Assembly: GCA_043816345.1 (NCBI GenBank)
Contig: JBDRIA010000040.1
Location: 1-51,471, forward strand
Source: Chloroflexota bacterium
GTDB taxonomy: Bacteria; Chloroflexota; Dehalococcoidia; Lucifugimonadales; UBA2985
Length of the DNA stretch: 51,471 nt
Direction: 5' to 3'
Part shown: in pieces, positions 28,567 to 36,606 of the stretch
Layout of the letters: each line of letters starts with the position of its first letter
How positions within the stretch are numbered: position 1 is the stretch's first letter
The notes under the pieces: generated by a model
What the model was told of the DNA's origin: nothing
What the model saw: the letters and a program-made list of their open reading frames with translations, nothing else
Database searches by the model: none
Made by a program: the position numbers and the translations under genes

Positions 28567-28940
28567 GAGCTTGTCCCATAGACTCCCTTTCCGCTGGGTA
28601 GGTAAAGCAGTAAGCTCTGGGGAATCCAGGTGTAAAGGTGGGTTCCATGGCATACAACCTCCTGGTCTCGGGCGGCGGGCGGACCGGCTGAAGCGGCTCT
28701 GGAAGCCAAGGGTGGTAGAGCCAATTCCTACCGGGGAGGCCAAGGCGAATACTACCGACCCCGAGAGTCGCATCATGAAGACGCTGCAGGGGTATGTACA
28801 AGGGTACAACGTACAGGCAGTGGTGAGCCTACGGCGGTCCACCTACCGGTACCAGAGCGTGGCAGATGAGCAGGCGGCATTGCGTATGCGAATTCGGGAA
28901 ATGGCGACAGCCCGAGTGAGCTATGGATACCACCGCATCT
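28567..28940 (+). mobile_element. Mosaic IS remnants: IS1182-like end and fragment joined to an IS3-family fragment
   Basis: GAGCTTGTCCCATA end; ANTTDPESRIMKT..GYVQGYNVQAVV (IS1182-like); then RSTYRYQS..DEQAALRMRIREMA..RVSYGY.RI (IS3 OrfB-like). Confidence 0.7.
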
Positions 28941-28987
28941 CAAGGGGATCGTTTGCCTATTCCGTGCAAAGAGTGATACGCTCAATT

Positions 28988-29013
28988 GGAACCTTTCCCT
29001 TTGTGATAACGTT
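28988..29013 (+). promoter_or_regulatory. ECF-sigma-type promoter for the lipoprotein gene
   Basis: GGAAC-N17-CGTT. Confidence 0.55.
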
Positions 29014-29084
29014 TAGGGCAGTGAGGACTGTGTGATATGTGGTGGGGTCAAGCATCCATAAGCGGAAATCATCCAGGGACGGGA

Positions 29085-30143
29085 ATGCTGGGGCGATTCC
29101 TACTCACAATAACCATTGTCATGGCTGCAGTGCTGGCCGCAAGCTGCCAGCTAGCCAATTCCTCACTCAACGAAAACGAAACGCCAACGCCTGCCTCCTA
29201 CTTCGACGGCACTATCACCCTGGAACTGATAGCACCCTCAGAGGTGAGCCAGGGGGAAGTGCTCATGGGGCTGGATGTGGTCATGACCAATGAAGGTCAA
29301 GAGCCGTTTGCGTTCTGTTTCGGATCTGATCTTCGCTTGTTTAATATCATCGACGGTGAAGGCAAAGAGGTTTGGCATTCTGTTGCCAGTGGCGAGGGGT
29401 GGCTTGCCTTCTACACATTAGAACCTGGTGAATCCAGGGTGCTCAGCAGCCTCAGCAATAACCTTGCCCCGCAGCAATGGGATTTGCGGGACCCTGAAGG
29501 CTTCCCCTCAGGGCCCGGAAAGTACCAAGTCAAAGGCATGGTCACCCTATGTTTTGAAAGCCCCGAACCAGGCCTTGCCCATCAGAGACTGGAAACCTCT
29601 GTCCACACATTGACCATCAAAGAGGCACCGATGCCGGAGTACGCCCAAGGAATCGAGTTGGCATTGACCGCACCCGCAGAAGCGCGTGCAGGAGACCCTG
29701 TTCCCATGGATATGCACATCACCAACAAAGGGAACGGACCTGTGGTCTTGTGGTGGGGTGACGAAGCCCTCTACTTGCCCGATAAATACCTCGATATAGT
29801 CATATTTGAAGAAGACAAGCCCATATGGCGTGCGACCTCGGCCCAGGGTGTTCCTAGTTGGTTAGGGATAATCACATTGAATCCAGGCGAATCGCAGACC
29901 ATGAGCAACATGTCATTCGATGCCAGGAAAGACGCCTATTGGAGCTCTGGAAAGCCCTTGGTGTGGAACCAGGTGGCCAACTGTGACGCTGGCTTCGAGC
30001 CTTGTGACGAGCCCGTCGGGCCTGGCACGTACACGATCCGCGGCGTTGTGAACGTCTCGCCACCGGAAGCACTGGGGCAGGAAGGCCCGCTGGAGCGCAC
30101 GACAATTGCCACCGAACCCCACCAATTAGTAATAACCCCGTGA
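29085..30143 (+). CDS. Lipoprotein with two tandem BsuPI-like (intracellular proteinase inhibitor-type) Ig-fold domains
   Basis: Lipobox VLAASC. Two internal repeats of L.L.AP.E...G......TN.G..P....I.....(V/I)W....TL.PGES....W......GPG.Y...G.V. Confidence 0.7.
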   Translation: MLGRFLLTITIVMAAVLAASCQLANSSLNENETPTPASYFDGTITLELIAPSEVSQGEVLMGLDVVMTNEGQEPFAFCFGSDLRLFNIIDGEGKEVWHSVASGEGWLAFYTLEPGESRVLSSLSNNLAPQQWDLRDPEGFPSGPGKYQVKGMVTLCFESPEPGLAHQRLETSVHTLTIKEAPMPEYAQGIELALTAPAEARAGDPVPMDMHITNKGNGPVVLWWGDEALYLPDKYLDIVIFEEDKPIWRATSAQGVPSWLGIITLNPGESQTMSNMSFDARKDAYWSSGKPLVWNQVANCDAGFEPCDEPVGPGTYTIRGVVNVSPPEALGQEGPLERTTIATEPHQLVITP

Positions 30144-30488
30144 TGCGCAAGCGGCATCAACACTCGGGATGGACGTACAGAGCTTGCTTCCATCGATGAC
30201 CCTGCGATAGTGAAAGAGATGGTAGATATGGTGCTGACAGCACCCGTAGACCAGGACCGCCAAAGCCAAGACGACGAGCAATACATTATTATCCTCTACC
30301 TGGAGGATGGTACGGCAGTGAGGCGCGGGTTCCGGGTAGAATCTGGTGAGCTGTCCATGGGGATCATGACGCGAGCGTTCTTCAATGTCCCCATCTTGCG
30401 GCTCCACGCCCCAATTGCCCCTCTCGCAGACGTTCGTCTACGGCCTCTCGGCAACCGAAACCGTAGGTCCAAGGCTTTCGCCGCTTAG
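30144..30488 (+). pseudogene. Probable fragment of a hypothetical protein, in frame behind the lipoprotein stop codon
   Basis: Open frame from 30144 (..GINTRDGRTELASIDDPAIVKEMVDMVLTAPVDQ...YLEDGTAVRRGF..) with no good start; its tail overlaps the TEP 3' end. Confidence 0.4.
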
Positions 30489-33400
30489 TTCCGGCTTGTA
30501 GTAGGAATATGCCTGCGATGCCACGCCCTGAGCCTTCACCGGATATAGAGCACGAGCCTTGAACTGGAAGGACAGCGACTCACCCGGCGACATGTCCTCA
30601 ATGTAGAAGATGACCTTCCGCCCGGCCACGTCATATCGCTTGATCTTGGGCTGCGCATTGGCCACCGCCTCCAGGGTGTCACCCTCCGGTACGAAGCCGG
30701 TAGGCACCGCTATATCCAGCACTACCATTCCTGCTTCCACCCGCTCGGGTGGTTGGAAAGTCACACGAACCGAGAGCGTCACCATGTCATTGACTGAGAC
30801 CTGCGTGGTATCGTAGCTCACGCTGATGTCGAAGGCGGGCTTCAGAGTGGACTCTACGTCCGGCAGGTTGAAGCGGCGAACGAACTGGGTCACCACCTCG
30901 CCCTTCCCGTCCACCACCACCTCCAACTCCTGGCCAGCCGGCACTTCGATCACCTGCACTACATCGAAGTTCTTGGGAGAAACGCTGACCTCTTTATGCC
31001 AGTCGCCAGCCTTCAGCGTGACCTTCGCGTCCACGTCGGCCTGGGCTGCGCTGGCGTACTGGGTGAGCGCCTGCAGCGCCACGACCGTGTCCTGGGTCGA
31101 ACCGAAACCGCCCAAGGCGTTCCGGTTGGAAACCAGCCACTTGGCTGCGCGGGAAGCGTTGGGTTTGTCACCGTGCTCAAGGAGCGCCAGCGTGGCGTAG
31201 CCTGTGGTCTCAATAGCTGCGCTCTGGTTCTGCGGCGGGTAGATGCCTGGCTGGGGCGGTGCCATCTTCCTGGACGCGTCCGACTCCAGAATCCTCGGCT
31301 CATCTCCCCAGTGCAGGCCACTTTCGTCCTCGCTCGCCAGGGCCATGAGCTTCTCGTAGGCGTCGTCACGCCGAGGGCTTTTCGCAAGCTCCAGGGCGTA
31401 GGCCGTCAGCGCCAGGCCGTAGGCATCCTCAGTTGTGTCCAGCGTGCCCTCCAGGTACTGGACGGCGCGCTGGAACGCTGCCGTCTCGCCTGCCTCCTTG
31501 AGGGCCACGGCCACATAGGCAGTGAGGGCGGTCTTGCCCTGCAACCCACCCAGCAACTCCTGGTGGTGGACGAAGCCCACCGTCTCAAAGGAACCGTCGG
31601 CGCTCTGGTGGGTCGCTATCCACGTCGCGGCCTCCCGCAGCACATCGTCGTCCACGTATATCAGGCCCCTGGCCTGAGCAAAGGTCTTCAGGACAAAGGC
31701 AGTAAGCCAGAGGCTGCCTTCCTTGTCCTGGTCACCAAAGGCGGAAAAGCTGCCATCGGAGCGCCTGTAGGTTAGCTCGCGCTGGTAGCCGGTCACCATC
31801 ATCTTCTCGGCCTTGGCCATTATCTCGGGCTTCACCTGGCCGGTAGCTGCCAGGTACTTCAGAATGAAGGTGTTGGGAGCGAAAAGGATCATGTTCTGCT
31901 CTCCGCAACCGAAGGGCATTCGGAGCAGTCCCTCCAGGCCCTGGATGGTCTGGCTCAAGTAGCTCCCTGTGAGAGCGACGTACACGCGCCCGGATCCCTC
32001 CACGATGCCAGGAGGGAGCGTGATGTCGACCTTGCGGGTGGAGCCAGCGGTAAGGACCAGGTTTTCAACCAGCTCACGCTGCACACCCTCGGGCTCGACG
32101 ATGAGATCCCTGATGACTGCGTCGGCCGCCTCGCGGCTCCTGGCGGTTACCTTCAACTGCCGGACACCCAGCCCCGTCAGCCGTATGAGGAACTCCACGC
32201 CACCGATGTCATTCCCGGACACCGTGACCGTCTTTGAGGGATCGTCCAGCAGATCGAACCATAGCGCTGGCTCCAGGTCAACGCGTATTTCCTGCTCATC
32301 CTCCAGGTAGTTGTAGAGCGACACTTTGACAGGGAACTCTTCACCGCGGACGGCGGAATACGGCAAGTCCGCACTGAGGAAGAAGGGTTGGAAGACCCTG
32401 ATTTGGTCCTCTGCGATGCCAAGGCCCTTTGTCCTGGACATGCCCACCGCTCGCAACATCCAGGTGGTGATGCTGTCTGGGGCCTGGAAGCTGAGCGATG
32501 TCTTTCCGTCTGCATCGGTGGTCACGTCTGTCCATATCCAGGTCTCGGGGAAGAATTGGCGAACGCGCTTCACCTCTGCCAGGTCGCCAGCATCGGCTGG
32601 TGGTGCGGCTGCCCCAGGCTGAGGCATGCCGCCTTTGTCCCCGCCCGATTCTTCAAGGAACCAGATACGTTGATCCAACTCCAGCTTCTCGCCCTGCGGT
32701 ACTTGCTTGTTGGTTATTACGAGCAAGCCAGTCTCCCCGATGACCTCTGCCGCCCCCTTGGTGAAAATCGGCTCGTACACGGTCGCCTCATGTAGCTCCA
32801 CCTGTGGTGACATGTACAGCCGCTCCAATTCATCGAACACCTGCTGGAGGTTAAGGCGATTCTCGGCCAGGATGAACACAGAGCGATCCACAGCTACTAA
32901 TCCAACCCTGGCCTGACCCTCCGACTGCACGTTGACCGTAACGTTGTCCCCTGGAGCGACCTGCTCGGCGCCGAACTCCGCACTCAGCTTATGAGGGTAG
33001 TCGCCCTCTGCGGAGAAGGGGATGTAGTCGGCGGCCACCTCACTATTGGGCAGTACCTGGTATACCAGTAGCCGCGCTGAGGGCGCCATGAGCGGCGTGA
33101 TGGTGAACGAGAACTCGCTGGAGGAGGAGTGGCCGCTGAAGACAGCTTTGCCTCGTGCCAAAACCTCATAGTAGAAGTTGACGGACTGTGAGGTGGAGTG
33201 GACGCGGAACCGCGCTTGGTCGCCCACCTTCCAGGGCCCTGGCACCGCCTGCTCCACGTGGATAAAGTTGCCCGAGGGCGAGTGCCCCGCAGAGAGGCTG
33301 AAGCTAGCTTGTGCCGGCGGCGTCTGAGATGACACCTGCAGCACGAAGGCCTCGGCCCGAAGGGATATGGCGTCACCGGGCGGCGTGACAGTGAAAAGTG

Positions 33401-34604
33401 CCTTCCCCTTCTCCACTCGCAACTGTTGTTGGTCGGAGCGGATCTCCTTGAACTGCTTGTCCCAGTACATGACACGCACGTCAGCCATCAGGTCCAGGGG
33501 TTTGTTGTCGGGGGTCTCCGCCACCAGCAGCAGGTTGAGTGGCAGGCCCGGCTTGAAAGATGAGGACTCCGGGATGATTTGCAGCGTCTCCGCAGCCGCG
33601 GAGATGGTGAGCAGGCGGGAGGTCTTCTCCTCGTAACCCGTGGCGCGCTCGCGCACCGTCACTTCGAGTTGTACGTTGCCCATGCCGCGGGCACCCGGCA
33701 CGCCGGCCACATAACCGACGGCTGGGATCTCGAAGGTCGCCGAGCCATCCAATTCCTTGGTGACAGTAGCGAACGTCTCCCAAGTACCAACGTATTTAGA
33801 AGCGACTACCTCCACCTCCCCAGATACCGGCTTACCAAAGGTGTACTCGGCAGAGACCTGTCCCTTCATCGGCTCGTTGACTAGGAACCACTCCTTGGGA
33901 AGCTCGACCTTCACCTCGTACTTGGGCAGTACGTATTCCTCTACGCGGACGTCGACTTGCGTCGATCCCTTGCCGCTCCTGGCCGTCACCTTCCAAACGC
34001 CCAGGTTGGGTTCGACGGAAAGGGGAAGGTCCAGTGTGGCCATGCCGTACTCATCGGTCTCTGCCTCACTGCGAAGGATTTTCAACCCCTTGGCATCCTG
34101 GACCTCCACGGTCACAAGACGGGATAGTGGCTTCAGCTCGGCGTCCAGAGCGAGCACACGGATGTGGACTGTCTGGCCTGGCTTGTAGATGGGCTTGTCC
34201 GTATCCACGAATACCAGGCTGCCATCCTCCACCTTGACCGTAGCCGTGTCCCTGAAAGTTGATCCCTTCACCTCCAGGGTGTATTCGCCTTCGGCCAGAT
34301 CAGGCACGCCAATGGCGATGGAGCCGGAACCGGCGATCTTGCCCGAAGACCGCGATACCTCCTTACCATCCTTGTCCACGAGTGTCAAGGTGACTGTGTC
34401 CGTGGCAGGCTGCTGCCCGCTGAATAGTGAGAAGGACACGGACTCCATCTGGCCCTGGCGGAACACCTTTGGCGCTAGCGCCACGTACCCATCCACGGAT
34501 GGGCTGGGGGCTACTTCGCGGTTGAGTGTAGGCACAACAACCAGCGTGACGAAGATCAACGCAGACAGGCCAGCTATCAATAGAAGACGCATGGCTACCT
34601 CCAT
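30438..34604 (-). CDS. Thioester-containing protein of the alpha-2-macroglobulin/CD109/complement family
   Basis: N-terminal hydrophobic segment; MG domains (TDKPIYKPGQ, EEYVLPKYEV); RQFFPETWIW, PDSITTW, thioester MPFGCGEQNM, YQRELTY..DGSFSAFG and GGFGSTQDTVVALQAL. Confidence 0.95.
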   Translation of the reverse strand: MEVAMRLLLIAGLSALIFVTLVVVPTLNREVAPSPSVDGYVALAPKVFRQGQMESVSFSLFSGQQPATDTVTLTLVDKDGKEVSRSSGKIAGSGSIAIGVPDLAEGEYTLEVKGSTFRDTATVKVEDGSLVFVDTDKPIYKPGQTVHIRVLALDAELKPLSRLVTVEVQDAKGLKILRSEAETDEYGMATLDLPLSVEPNLGVWKVTARSGKGSTQVDVRVEEYVLPKYEVKVELPKEWFLVNEPMKGQVSAEYTFGKPVSGEVEVVASKYVGTWETFATVTKELDGSATFEIPAVGYVAGVPGARGMGNVQLEVTVRERATGYEEKTSRLLTISAAAETLQIIPESSSFKPGLPLNLLLVAETPDNKPLDLMADVRVMYWDKQFKEIRSDQQQLRVEKGKALFTVTPPGDAISLRAEAFVLQVSSQTPPAQASFSLSAGHSPSGNFIHVEQAVPGPWKVGDQARFRVHSTSQSVNFYYEVLARGKAVFSGHSSSSEFSFTITPLMAPSARLLVYQVLPNSEVAADYIPFSAEGDYPHKLSAEFGAEQVAPGDNVTVNVQSEGQARVGLVAVDRSVFILAENRLNLQQVFDELERLYMSPQVELHEATVYEPIFTKGAAEVIGETGLLVITNKQVPQGEKLELDQRIWFLEESGGDKGGMPQPGAAAPPADAGDLAEVKRVRQFFPETWIWTDVTTDADGKTSLSFQAPDSITTWMLRAVGMSRTKGLGIAEDQIRVFQPFFLSADLPYSAVRGEEFPVKVSLYNYLEDEQEIRVDLEPALWFDLLDDPSKTVTVSGNDIGGVEFLIRLTGLGVRQLKVTARSREAADAVIRDLIVEPEGVQRELVENLVLTAGSTRKVDITLPPGIVEGSGRVYVALTGSYLSQTIQGLEGLLRMPFGCGEQNMILFAPNTFILKYLAATGQVKPEIMAKAEKMMVTGYQRELTYRRSDGSFSAFGDQDKEGSLWLTAFVLKTFAQARGLIYVDDDVLREAATWIATHQSADGSFETVGFVHHQELLGGLQGKTALTAYVAVALKEAGETAAFQRAVQYLEGTLDTTEDAYGLALTAYALELAKSPRRDDAYEKLMALASEDESGLHWGDEPRILESDASRKMAPPQPGIYPPQNQSAAIETTGYATLALLEHGDKPNASRAAKWLVSNRNALGGFGSTQDTVVALQALTQYASAAQADVDAKVTLKAGDWHKEVSVSPKNFDVVQVIEVPAGQELEVVVDGKGEVVTQFVRRFNLPDVESTLKPAFDISVSYDTTQVSVNDMVTLSVRVTFQPPERVEAGMVVLDIAVPTGFVPEGDTLEAVANAQPKIKRYDVAGRKVIFYIEDMSPGESLSFQFKARALYPVKAQGVASQAYSYYKPELSGESLGPTVSVAERP

Positions 34605-34622
34605 AAGAACCTGATGACATCA

Positions 34623-34649
34623 AGACGTATCATTCGCAGAAAAAGTTCC
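34623..34649 (-). promoter_or_regulatory. ECF-sigma-type promoter for the thioester protein
   Basis: Minus strand GGAAC-N17-CGTCT, shortly upstream of the GGAGG RBS. Confidence 0.6.
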
Positions 34650-34738
34650 AAAGTGCAAGAGGAACAGGGTCCCTAGTTCCAGTGTCACCAAGGTGAGGAC
34701 CTTTGGACGGTATCGAGATGTCCACCAGCTCATGGGGA

Positions 34739-34841
34739 TGGCCAGGGGAGCTAGTGCGTACCGGCGGAGAAGGGCGTCATAACCAACCGCTCATGGTTCG
34801 ACAAGCTCACCATGAGCCGCTCACCCTAAGCCTGTCGAAGG
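34739..34841. repeat. Composite REP-like element, copy 2
   Basis: Shares both arms with 9799-9941; the central CATGGTTCGACAAGCTCACCATG hairpin is inverted relative to copy 1. Confidence 0.75.
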
Positions 34842-34864
34842 GAATGAGAGGGGTTGTGGCAGCC

Positions 34865-35539
34865 CTATGCGTCCGGGGAGGCCAGGCGCTCTTTCAGCCC
34901 CCGGATCGCGGCCTCTATCCCATCGGGGTGATCAAAGACCGCGGCACCTGCCACCACCACCTGTGCTCCTGCCCTGGCCACCAGGGAAGCGGTGTCGGTG
35001 TTTATGCCTCCATCCACCTCAAGCTCCGCCTGGAGTCCCTTTTCGTCCATGATGTGACGGATGCGGGCTATCTTCTGGGGGCTTTCGGGAATGAACTTCT
35101 GCGCGGGAAGTCCCGGATTCACCGTCATCACCAGCACCAGGTCCGTCCACTGAAGGGCCTCATCAATGGCCGTCACCGGGGTGCCCGGGTTGATGGCTAC
35201 CCCGGCTCTAGCCCCGTGCTCTTTTATCTGGGCGATTATCCAGTGCAGGTGGGTGCACGCCTCCGCGTGGACGGTGAGGATGTCCGCGCCTGCGTCCAGG
35301 AAGGAGGCGATATGGCGCTCCGGTTGCTGGATCATCAGGTGGACATCCAGGGGCAGGTGTGTCCACCCCTTGATGGCCTCCACGGTTCGGGGGCCCCATG
35401 TGATGCTGGGCACAAAGTGGCCGTCCATGATGTCCACGTGGATGTAGTCGGCGCCGGCCAGGGTGGCCTCCGCAACCTGCTCGCCCAGGCGCGCGAAGTC
35501 CGCCGACAGGATGGACGGGGCAATTTTGATGATGCTCAT
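34865..35539 (-). CDS. rpe: Ribulose-phosphate 3-epimerase
   Basis: IAPSILSADF, HVDIMDGHFVP, DVHLM, VMTVNPG and EVDGGIN. Confidence 0.96.
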   Translation of the reverse strand: MSIIKIAPSILSADFARLGEQVAEATLAGADYIHVDIMDGHFVPSITWGPRTVEAIKGWTHLPLDVHLMIQQPERHIASFLDAGADILTVHAEACTHLHWIIAQIKEHGARAGVAINPGTPVTAIDEALQWTDLVLVMTVNPGLPAQKFIPESPQKIARIRHIMDEKGLQAELEVDGGINTDTASLVARAGAQVVVAGAAVFDHPDGIEAAIRGLKERLASPDA

Positions 35540-36606
35540 ATTGGCCCTTCCGTCTGAGGAAGGGCTGGCCCCCAGGTCTGGGGGTCGAGGGCGTTGAGGA
35601 GGCGGTTGAATGTCTCCTGGTATTTTGCCCCATCCTGCCACCCTGAGAAGTCGAGGACGTGGGTCGCCAGCACATCTGCCTTACGTGGGTGCTGCCATTC
35701 ATTCAAGACATAGTCGTCCAGTCGGACGGGAACCAGCACGTCTTCATCCAGCAGGTCGGGCTTTTCCCCCTGCTTCTCACCTTCACTCTTGCGCCGCATG
35801 TTTTCCGCCTTCAATGCCGCTTCTTTCTGGAGCGCCCGCTCTATCTCCCTCGGCACGCCGTCCTTTTGCAGAGATCTCTGGGAGCAGATGGTCACCATCT
35901 TGTCATTGTCTTGAAACGCGCGGTCAGGTTTGGCCAATACAGCTGCCACCGCGTCTTCGTCGTATTTCCAGCAGGGCACACCCTCGGCCTCCAGGTCTCT
36001 GTGGAGGCGGGTGGCGAAGTCTTCATCGGCAGAAGTATAGCGTATCAAACAGCGGGGGTATCTCCTCTCACCGCTTACCAGGGGCAGCAACGCGTCCAGG
36101 ATTTCCCTGGGTACGCCTGCGCCGAGGAGGAAGGCTCTCGGGATATTGCCCCCAGAGCGGATCATCGTGTCAATGCCAATACTACTCGGACTTTCATGCA
36201 CTACCAATCCCAGACCTCGACACTCGCCAAGATTGCAGTTGGCAAGGTTCGTAGACCCACATCTGGCCTGTGAGAGATTGGCCTCTGTGAGATCAACTCC
36301 GAATAGTTTAGCCAAATAAAGGTTAGCGCATGAGAGATTAGCCCGAATGAGGTAAGCCCAAGTCATGTCAGCCGACAAGAGGTCAGCCCCAGTTAAGTCA
36401 GCGCCGGAGAGGTCGGCCCAGGAAAGGTCAGAGCAAGAAAGGTTGGCTCCAGAGAGATTAGCTCCAGAGAGATTAGCCTTGGTGAGTTTAGACCAGATAA
36501 GGTTGGCCCCGGCGAGGTCAAGGTGCTCTTCCGGGTGCAACGTCTGCCATCTGGCTATGGCTTCGCTGCCTTCCCTCACCAACTGGACATGCTCTGGGTT
36601 TGCCAT
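35536..36606 (-). CDS. Pentapeptide-repeat plus TIR-domain protein
   Basis: A(N/D)LS repeats; SSIGIDT linker; TIR_2-like C.I.Y...DE.FA.RL..DL...GV.CW...REIERAL.KE...L.PVRLDD..DF..W. Confidence 0.85.
   Translation of the reverse strand: MANPEHVQLVREGSEAIARWQTLHPEEHLDLAGANLIWSKLTKANLSGANLSGANLSCSDLSWADLSGADLTGADLLSADMTWAYLIRANLSCANLYLAKLFGVDLTEANLSQARCGSTNLANCNLGECRGLGLVVHESPSSIGIDTMIRSGGNIPRAFLLGAGVPREILDALLPLVSGERRYPRCLIRYTSADEDFATRLHRDLEAEGVPCWKYDEDAVAAVLAKPDRAFQDNDKMVTICSQRSLQKDGVPREIERALQKEAALKAENMRRKSEGEKQGEKPDLLDEDVLVPVRLDDYVLNEWQHPRKADVLATHVLDFSGWQDGAKYQETFNRLLNALDPQTWGPALPQTEGPI

Follow-up and report, generated by a model that had tools for sequence, protein, structure and literature searches.

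A2ML1 is described as a monomeric protease inhibitor with a His-type thioester that reacts with amines and hydroxyls, and its inhibition is reported there to need covalent conjugation (PMC9156758). CD109 is likewise described as a protease inhibitor (PMC12927315), and the lipid-anchored alpha-macroglobulin of E. coli is described as inhibiting by attaching covalently and by hindering sterically (PMC12939704). As presented in papers from 2017 to 2026 (including PMC9156758 and PMC12939704), bacterial alpha-macroglobulins are Gram-negative, host-associated, structurally distinct and likely derived from metazoan hosts; as far as their accessible text goes, reviews from 2026 still name only Gram-negative bacteria such as E. 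coli and transfer from metazoan hosts. According to PMC9156758, the family began as a CD109-like protein in early animals. Here we examined a gene on the 51,471-nucleotide contig JBDRIA010000040.1 (the window, meaning this whole stretch of DNA) of a Chloroflexota bacterium of the class Dehalococcoidia (assembly GCA_043816345.1). Judged from its sequence, the product is a full-length alpha-macroglobulin of the animal (CD109/A2ML1/A2M) type and not of the YfhM type found in E. coli.

The product matches the Pfam families MG2, MG3, A2M_BRD, A2M, TED_complement (E = 1.3e-90) and A2M_recep, every one over its cut-off. Among Protein Data Bank (PDB) sequences, human A2M scored highest (496.7 bits, E = 1.3e-147), followed by CD109 (463 bits, E = 2e-137), A2ML1 (447.4 bits, E = 1e-132), C4 (up to 331 bits; E = 1.1e-97, best of three), mosquito TEP1 (316.5 bits, E = 3.3e-93) and C3 (292 bits, E = 6.9e-86). 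At the level of sequence, the match to the family is far beyond chance. It is also a single collinear match, with amino acids (aa) 119-1341 set against CD109 residues 139-1378, and identity to the animal proteins is about 29-32% over the full length. As a yardstick, an animal CD109-like protein (P0256) scored 462.7 bits against human A2M, and thus the bacterial protein is as near to human A2M as animal subfamilies are to each other. Of the features that mark the A2MF superfamily, we found the following: a collinear MG1-MG6 ring, bait-region domain, MG7, CUB-TED (TED being the thioester domain) and MG8, a CGEQ motif, and a variable bait followed by an Arg-x-x-Phe plug. The alignments and models together suggest a domain plan of a six-MG ring, a bait region, MG7, CUB, the thioester domain and MG8. 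None of the 10 Pfam families that the product matched at E <= 0.01 was an anaphylatoxin or C345C domain.

A different reading would make the protein a divergent member of the YfhM/ECAM or YfaS class that guards the envelope together with a peptidoglycan synthase. The YfhM sequence, which we drew from the E. coli K-12 record where yfhM abuts pbpC, has 1653 aa, the domains bMG1/2/3/5/6/10 and a CLEQ motif. Its top BLASTP segment against the Chloroflexota protein scored 46.6 bits, against 497 for human A2M, and the two could be aligned over only about 80-130 residues. The Chloroflexota protein has CGEQ in place of CLEQ and no Pfam match to bMG1, bMG2, bMG3, bMG5 or bMG6; its bMG10 match is weak (20.4 bits, under the 26.2-bit cut-off). 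That weak match counts in favor of the YfhM class, as does the fact that YfhM is lipid-anchored at its N terminus, like most relatives of the Chloroflexota protein. Against it, none of the 51 PDB sequences matched by a TED query was a bacterial structure, and no bacterial alpha-macroglobulin stood among the 50 listed Foldseek matches for either of two half-models. There is no pbpC alongside the gene, and the other neighbors had no transglycosylase or transpeptidase match. Moreover, none of 26 genomes of the order, 15 of them at least 90% complete, matched the transglycosylase (PF00912) or the transpeptidase (PF00905) domain of penicillin-binding proteins, although 10 of 10 bacterial controls did, and a pairing like that of YfhM with PbpC therefore cannot hold here. 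What the two proteins share is that both are bacterial alpha-macroglobulins with a thioester motif, and YfhM (ECAM) is described as a monomeric covalent inhibitor (PMC12939704). Given these results, we regard membership of the YfhM class as highly improbable. A first-pass annotation of this DNA had also set the protein apart from YfhM and remarked on the missing pbpC; both remarks agree with what we found, the neighbors being rpe and unknown open reading frames (ORFs).

Next, we examined the gene and its product. The sole long frame at the locus lies on the minus strand and translates without an internal stop into 1388 aa from the first ATG (Table 1). The true start is probably Met5, giving 1384 aa rather than 1388, because a GGAGG (34602-34598) sits 5 nucleotides before a second ATG at 34592 and because the public gene call (P0002) also has 1384 aa. 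The segment MPFGCGEQNMILFAPN at aa 896 contains GCGEQ (aa 899-903), and its Cys900 is the sole Cys of the protein. Upstream of it lie PDSITTW (from aa 709), FQPFF (from 738), LPYS (from 747) and RGE (from 753), and downstream lie FVHHQELLGG (from aa 1011) and GGFGSTQDTVVALQAL (from aa 1165). The only hydrophobic stretch is N-terminal, within aa 1-29; none is present at the C terminus. Every motif quoted in the first-pass annotation was recovered in the translation, with GCGEQ at its positions, and so were its single Cys, its N-terminal hydrophobic anchor and its Gly/Pro/Ala-rich, bait-like region, which lies before RQFFPETW at aa ~640-680.

We then determined which residues are conserved, using 107 aligned full-length rows in which the window protein is present twice (P0001 and P0002). 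CGEQ and His1014 were each kept in 107 of 107 rows, Glu or Asp at position 1016 in 106, and Arg682 and Phe685 each in all 107. A 63-residue query around FVHHQELLGG placed His1014 and Glu1016 opposite the His and Glu of C3d chains, and a TED query placed His1014 opposite a His in CD109 and opposite an Asn in human A2M. Thus, the C3/C4-type feature of a His (with Glu) about 110 residues past the thioester Cys appears in the C3d alignment. The first-pass annotation had proposed checking its HQE against the catalytic pair of C3, and the pair does align at the level of sequence; His1014 and Glu1016 are accordingly best read as the putative counterparts of the C3/CD109 His and Glu. In an alignment to A2ML1 (PDB chain 7q1y_A), Arg682 and Phe685 fall opposite the Arg and Phe of a motif that Nielsen et al. 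2022 (PMC9156758) describe as a conserved plug passing through a channel; residue numbers in that paper were carried over to the PDB chain with an inferred 18-residue offset. Conservation in the family is lowest in the Gly/Pro/Ala-rich segment ahead of the plug: it is 32-56 aa long in 76 sequences, and its majority-residue fraction is 0.20 versus 0.65 elsewhere. Such a hypervariable segment is what a bait would look like.

Both halves of the protein were modeled with AlphaFold2, and the half-models, which carry no thioester, were compared through Foldseek scores. The model of aa 600-1388 (76 sequences) had a mean predicted local distance difference test score (pLDDT) of 81.2 and a predicted template modeling score (pTM) of 0.71, with bait residues 647-686 below a pLDDT of 50, that is, disordered. 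Its top matches were to native forms: A2ML1 (7q1y) with a query-normalized template modeling score (TMq) of 0.69, CD109 with 0.67, the A2M monomer with 0.69, and C3 and C5 with 0.60-0.64. Activated forms matched poorly (C3b, 0.32; induced A2M, 0.43; active CD109, 0.36). The model of aa 36-700 (70 sequences; pLDDT 84.6, pTM 0.76) matched whole C5 and C3 beta chains with a TMq of 0.73-0.76 and a target-normalized score (TMt) of 0.75-0.76, and CD109 with 0.70-0.76. Both predicted halves match native animal structures, and the N-terminal half is predicted to form an animal-like six-domain MG ring with no additional N-terminal domains.

Taken one by one, the described proteins resemble the Chloroflexota protein to different degrees. 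The likeness to CD109 includes the collinear match, GCGEQ in both, the aligned His and Glu of the TED, and a TMq of 0.67 for the C-terminal and 0.74 for the N-terminal half against native CD109. Both would be single-chain, membrane-tethered proteins, if the tether that we propose for the Chloroflexota protein holds, and the JGI database calls many of its relatives "CD109 antigen." However, CD109 is described as having a C-terminal glycosylphosphatidylinositol (GPI) anchor (PMC7960916), whereas here there is no C-terminal GPI signal and the sole hydrophobic stretch forms an apparent N-terminal signal anchor; in our trees, the query also lies across the bacteria/eukaryote branch, outside the animal CD109 group. 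A2ML1 is the top Foldseek match of the C-terminal half, its plug aligns, and it is described as achieving monomeric inhibition through covalent capture with a His-type thioester (PMC9156758). In contrast to the putatively tethered Chloroflexota protein, it appears from the same source to be secreted and untethered, and it scores 447 bits with 29% identity by Foldseek. Human A2M is the highest-scoring PDB sequence, but it has Asn at the position of His1014 and many disulfides and is described as forming a tetramer cage. C3 shares the His/Glu pair (through C3d), the native fold (TMq 0.60-0.61) and a beta chain that the MG ring fits; it differs in its anaphylatoxin and C345C domains, in having a convertase site where this protein has a bait region, and in its lower score. 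The disulfide-held chains of C3 and C4 have no counterpart here, where the one Cys is the thioester Cys.

We asked how the protein is placed in trees. Of 151 sequences (150 representatives plus the query), 25 covered too little of the profile, and FastTree split the remaining 126 rows into 34 low-Cys and 92 high-Cys rows with a support of 98. IQ-TREE (LG+C20, quick search), run on 52 rows hand-chosen from the 126 for length and spread, gave the same split with a Shimodaira-Hasegawa-like approximate likelihood ratio test (SH-aLRT) value of 100, although its groups were taken from the FastTree split, which makes it circular as a test of the labels; the query fell in a five-row clade with a support of 98. 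Independent labels are few: by PDB score P0262 is vertebrate A2M-like, P0256 CD109-like and P0193 A2M-like, and P0163 is named Cymbomonas. The low-Cys rows are labeled via their listed relatives (Acidobacteriota/Planctomycetota), and the query clade is named Chloroflexota. The query is on the low-Cys (bacterial) side, and the CD109-like P0256 is on the other. Cys numbers are 1 in the window protein versus 9-27 in the four labeled animal rows, with 14 in P0256. The tree is unrooted, YfhM being unusable as an outgroup with so short an alignable stretch. The query nests neither inside an animal subfamily nor in the YfhM class, and the unrooted tree is silent on the direction of transfer. The first-pass annotation had spoken of a lineage close to animal thioester proteins, with which the two trees, the scores and the collinearity with CD109/A2M agree; nesting in the YfhM clade, against which it had proposed a phylogeny, was not seen, and the query clade groups with other low-Cys bacterial proteins.

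These trees also bear on whether the likeness to CD109 and A2M could come from contamination of the genome bin by eukaryotic DNA or from a gene recently acquired from an animal. The full-length identity to animal proteins would fit this, as would the view published in the sources cited above that bacterial proteins of this kind come from metazoan hosts. However, the gene sits between bacterial genes on a 51-kb contig, its top matches bear bacterial names, and its single Cys sets it apart from the four labeled animal rows. Relatives are encoded in 334 stretches of species-representative prokaryote genomes, the best 80 nearly all from Chloroflexota, and the branch between low- and high-Cys proteins is supported at 98 (FastTree) and 100 (IQ-TREE). 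We therefore give a recent animal source or contamination only a very slight chance.

Of 8000 proteins scored in a word-indexed search for the family, 4998 passed E <= 0.001. Identity to the query is 58-87% among the best 120, and those with names are called "alpha-2-macroglobulin family protein" from Chloroflexota, Dehalococcoidia and Anaerolineae or, in JGI, "CD109 antigen." The family is thus already known to databases under these labels. Of 354 stretches matched in species-representative prokaryote genomes, 334 encode a relative, and Dehalococcoidia or other Chloroflexota account for nearly all of the best 80. When aa 600-1388 served as the query of an exhaustive search without a profile, 12455 representatives passed E <= 0.001 and 2797 passed E <= 1e-30. 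Among the best 150 of these, about eight are at least 50% identical and make up the clade of the query; they are followed by low-Cys proteins (41-47% identity), whose named close relatives are Acidobacteriota and Planctomycetota, including Anaerobaca lacustris, and then high-Cys proteins at 34-40%. As grouped by these matches, there is a large Chloroflexota clade with sister clades in Acidobacteriota and Planctomycetota. Two relatives come from organisms named as a species or strain, Dehalogenimonas sp. 4OHTPN and Anaerobaca lacustris; most come from uncultured Dehalococcoidia, Anaerolineae, Acidobacteriota and Planctomycetota.

Several relatives depart from this pattern. Those of about 1900 aa (P0147, P0150, P0160, P0274-P0281, P0313 and P0355), whose listed named neighbors are Acidobacteriota/Planctomycetota, add IPT/TIG (PF01833) and PF18986 domains, and further relatives in the same listing have dockerin (PF00404) or LamG-like domains, which suggests alternative anchoring or targeting of the same core. 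A long-branched low-Cys subclade of 1500-1725 aa (P0250, P0251, P0222, P0254, P0266 and P0267) is without CGEQ; P0250 has GCFEQ, and the other five do not match the thioester pattern. These may be thioester-less relatives, as C5 is among complement proteins. Two homologues contain in-frame stops, a TAG and a TAA in L003 (G025:C5:145224-149321) and one TAG in G126:C11:18269-20734, and may be pseudogenes or sequencing errors. Homologues with GCGEQ and the His also occur in green algae (P0151, P0163 and P0386; one named Cymbomonas tetramitiformis and one a Pyramimonas transcriptome entry). Their best nonalgal matches are Chloroflexota proteins at 39-41% identity, and they are basal on the high-Cys side.

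To place the protein in the cell, we looked at its N terminus and at the envelope of the order. In 91 of the 107 rows, [GAS]-Cys follows straight after the N-terminal hydrophobic stretch in a lipobox-like manner; in 13, including the window protein and its nearest relative P0003, the stretch has no Cys, and 3 rows are without a start. The absence of a lipobox reported in the first-pass annotation therefore holds for the window protein, which has no N-terminal Cys, but does not extend to the family. A search for Lgt succeeded in 25 of the 26 genomes of this order, the one that holds the window among them. Together with the lack of transglycosylase and transpeptidase domains, this fits a lineage that has no peptidoglycan wall and still makes lipoproteins. 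The hydrophobic stretch would serve as an uncleaved N-terminal signal anchor, leaving the protein attached to the cytoplasmic membrane on its outer side, and within the genomes searched such a tethered protein would face the outside directly.

On the basis of the family membership, architecture, conserved and aligned key residues and anchor pattern established above, we consider it somewhat better than an even bet that the protein is a membrane-tethered, monomeric, covalent protease trap guarding an exposed cell surface. We favor this because the predicted fold is native-like, the bait is hypervariable and disordered, the plug is conserved, and the thioester motif and His are invariant, and because monomeric A2ML1 provides a precedent with the same His in which covalent capture is needed. 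A second precedent is the lipid-anchored, covalently binding inhibitor of E. coli, and the lack of penicillin-binding protein domains in the genomes searched is in keeping with a membrane that lies exposed. Formation of the thioester, a role for the His like that in C3 and A2ML1, a protease as both trigger and target, and the membrane topology are all inferred. In such a trap, the N-terminal signal anchor (in most relatives, a lipoprotein anchor) would hold the protein on the outward side of the membrane, where a foreign endopeptidase would cut the disordered, hypervariable bait. The Arg682/Phe685 plug would then be let go and the protein would change shape, exposing the Cys900-Gln903 thioester. 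His1014 would attack the thioester to give an acyl-imidazole, which could react with an amine or hydroxyl of the nearby protease and so fix it to the tethered protein.

Several results weigh against the protease trap. Nothing in the sequence names a target protease, and our literature search found no biochemistry on any family member. Water and any hydroxyl would react with a His-type thioester, and surface tagging would be just as good a fit to this. None of 24 genomes of the family to which the window belongs has the gene; it is present in 3 of 16 elsewhere in the order (one as a fragment only) and in 23 of 400 others drawn from the phylum (E <= 1e-50), and so patchy a gene is dispensable. 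The window belongs to a 1.17-Mb genome that is 55.65% complete; a search of it for bacterial small-subunit rRNA gave no match, and in our analysis its taxonomy rests on the names given to homologues. By tblastn, 0 of its 13 neighbors recur in 82 related loci, and when the 920 ORFs of those loci were clustered, the commonest neighbor family occurred in just 10 of 82; with no conserved neighbor, the context yields no functional hint.

The alternative to trapping is tagging as in C3 or TEP1, in which a protease-activated His-type thioester would deposit the protein on hydroxyl-rich glycans and mark or glue its targets instead of inhibiting a protease; possible targets are foreign cells, particles and the surface layer of the bacterium itself. 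The alignment of His1014/Glu1016 with the C3d pair, kept in 107 and 106 of 107 rows, is consistent with tagging, as are the hydroxyl reactivity that such a His permits according to PMC9156758 and the exposed membrane of an order without penicillin-binding protein domains in the genomes searched. The first-pass annotation had gone from the His to surface tagging, but this step does not follow, as the protease inhibitors A2ML1 and CD109 carry the same His. Moreover, Pfam found neither an anaphylatoxin nor a C345C domain, the nearby genes include no conserved partner resembling a convertase or receptor, and a tether to the bacterium's own membrane would limit tagging to things within reach. The hypervariable bait also resembles that of broad-range inhibitors and not a defined convertase site. 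Nothing that we found favors tagging over a protease trap, and we consider it unlikely. A more specific form, in which complement-like tagging starts from a naked, wall-less membrane and protease activation bonds the protein to glycans of a predator, a neighbor, a particle or its own surface, is quite improbable in our estimate. If it were true, covalent marking or anchoring of non-self would have been invented by prokaryotes, and animals would have inherited or acquired it later.

Whether it traps or tags, the protein conflicts with the published views of bacterial alpha-macroglobulins outlined above. It has the animal architecture over its full length; its relatives are mostly from uncultured Dehalococcoidia, Anaerolineae, Acidobacteriota and Planctomycetota; and the family looks fitted to bacteria, having a lipoprotein or signal anchor and just one or two Cys. 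In the tree, the bacterial side matches the eukaryotic side in depth, and the green-algal homologues are at odds with the origin within animals that PMC9156758 states. Our search found no paper on animal-type alpha-macroglobulins in Chloroflexota or free-living bacteria, although the supplementary phylogeny of PMC9156758 may include bacterial sequences. Taken together, the architecture, hosts, adaptation, phylogeny and algal homologues make the origin of the thioester-protein/complement scaffold a testable question. The family also offers disulfide-free proteins, two of them from named organisms, in which the bait-plug-thioester mechanism could be studied. We judge the weight of these findings to be moderate to high for the origin of the scaffold and lower for the single gene.

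Table 1. Positions in the window of the alpha-macroglobulin gene and of the features of its product
Feature	Positions	Strand	Basis or remark
Thioester-containing alpha-macroglobulin gene	30438..34604	-	1388 aa from first ATG; stop codon within
GGAGG, 5-nucleotide spacer and second ATG (34592-34590), probable start	34590..34602	-	1384-aa product
Hydrophobic stretch, aa 7-24	34533..34586	-	No Cys or Ala-X-Ala site; putative signal anchor
MG2, aa 131-218	33951..34214	-	PF01835, 6.8e-22
MG3, aa 223-290	33735..33938	-	PF17791, 1e-13
Bait-region domain, aa 456-579	32868..33239	-	PF07703, 1.1e-30
Bait-like segment, hypervariable and disordered, aa 640-674	32583..32687	-	Alignment; pLDDT <50 for aa 647-686
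RQFFPETWIW, aa 682-691	32532..32561	-	Arg682/Phe685 align with A2ML1 plug Arg/Phe (7q1y_A)
A2M domain, aa 688-777	32274..32543	-	PF00207, 1.8e-29
Thioester domain (TED), aa 878-1183	31056..31973	-	PF07678, 1.3e-90
GCGEQ thioester motif (Cys900, Gln903)	31896..31910	-	Kept in 107/107 rows
HHQE, aa 1013-1016	31557..31568	-	His1014/Glu1016 align with C3d and CD109 His/Glu
Receptor-binding/MG8 domain, aa 1290-1373	30486..30737	-	PF07677, 2.3e-16

The surroundings of the gene were examined as well. A search for sigma-70-like sites found 0 in 30000-35800, and terminator-like sites were no commoner there than in shuffled sequence; a sequencing-run search returned one DNA run (0.08 share of words) and no RNA run. 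An operon partner was a candidate that we dropped, tblastn and ORF clustering over the 82 loci having shown no recurring neighbor. The same-strand upstream gene is that for ribulose-phosphate 3-epimerase (rpe; 34865-35641, minus strand). Its real start is probably further downstream, because the ORF matches its family only from aa 39 on and overlaps the end of the next gene. That gene, two upstream and also on the minus strand (35536-36606), encodes 356 aa with pentapeptide repeats (aa 30-68 onward) and a TIR_2 domain (aa 188-262). The pentapeptide-TIR protein was not found beside homologues in the 82 loci, and neither it nor five further neighbors had a PADLOC match. Downstream of the alpha-macroglobulin gene lie two abutting plus-strand ORFs. 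The one at 28571-29035 has a weak match to an IS1182 transposase (21.8 bits against a cut-off of 270), the one at 29037-30143 matches no family, and together they may be a decayed mobile element beside a patchily distributed gene.

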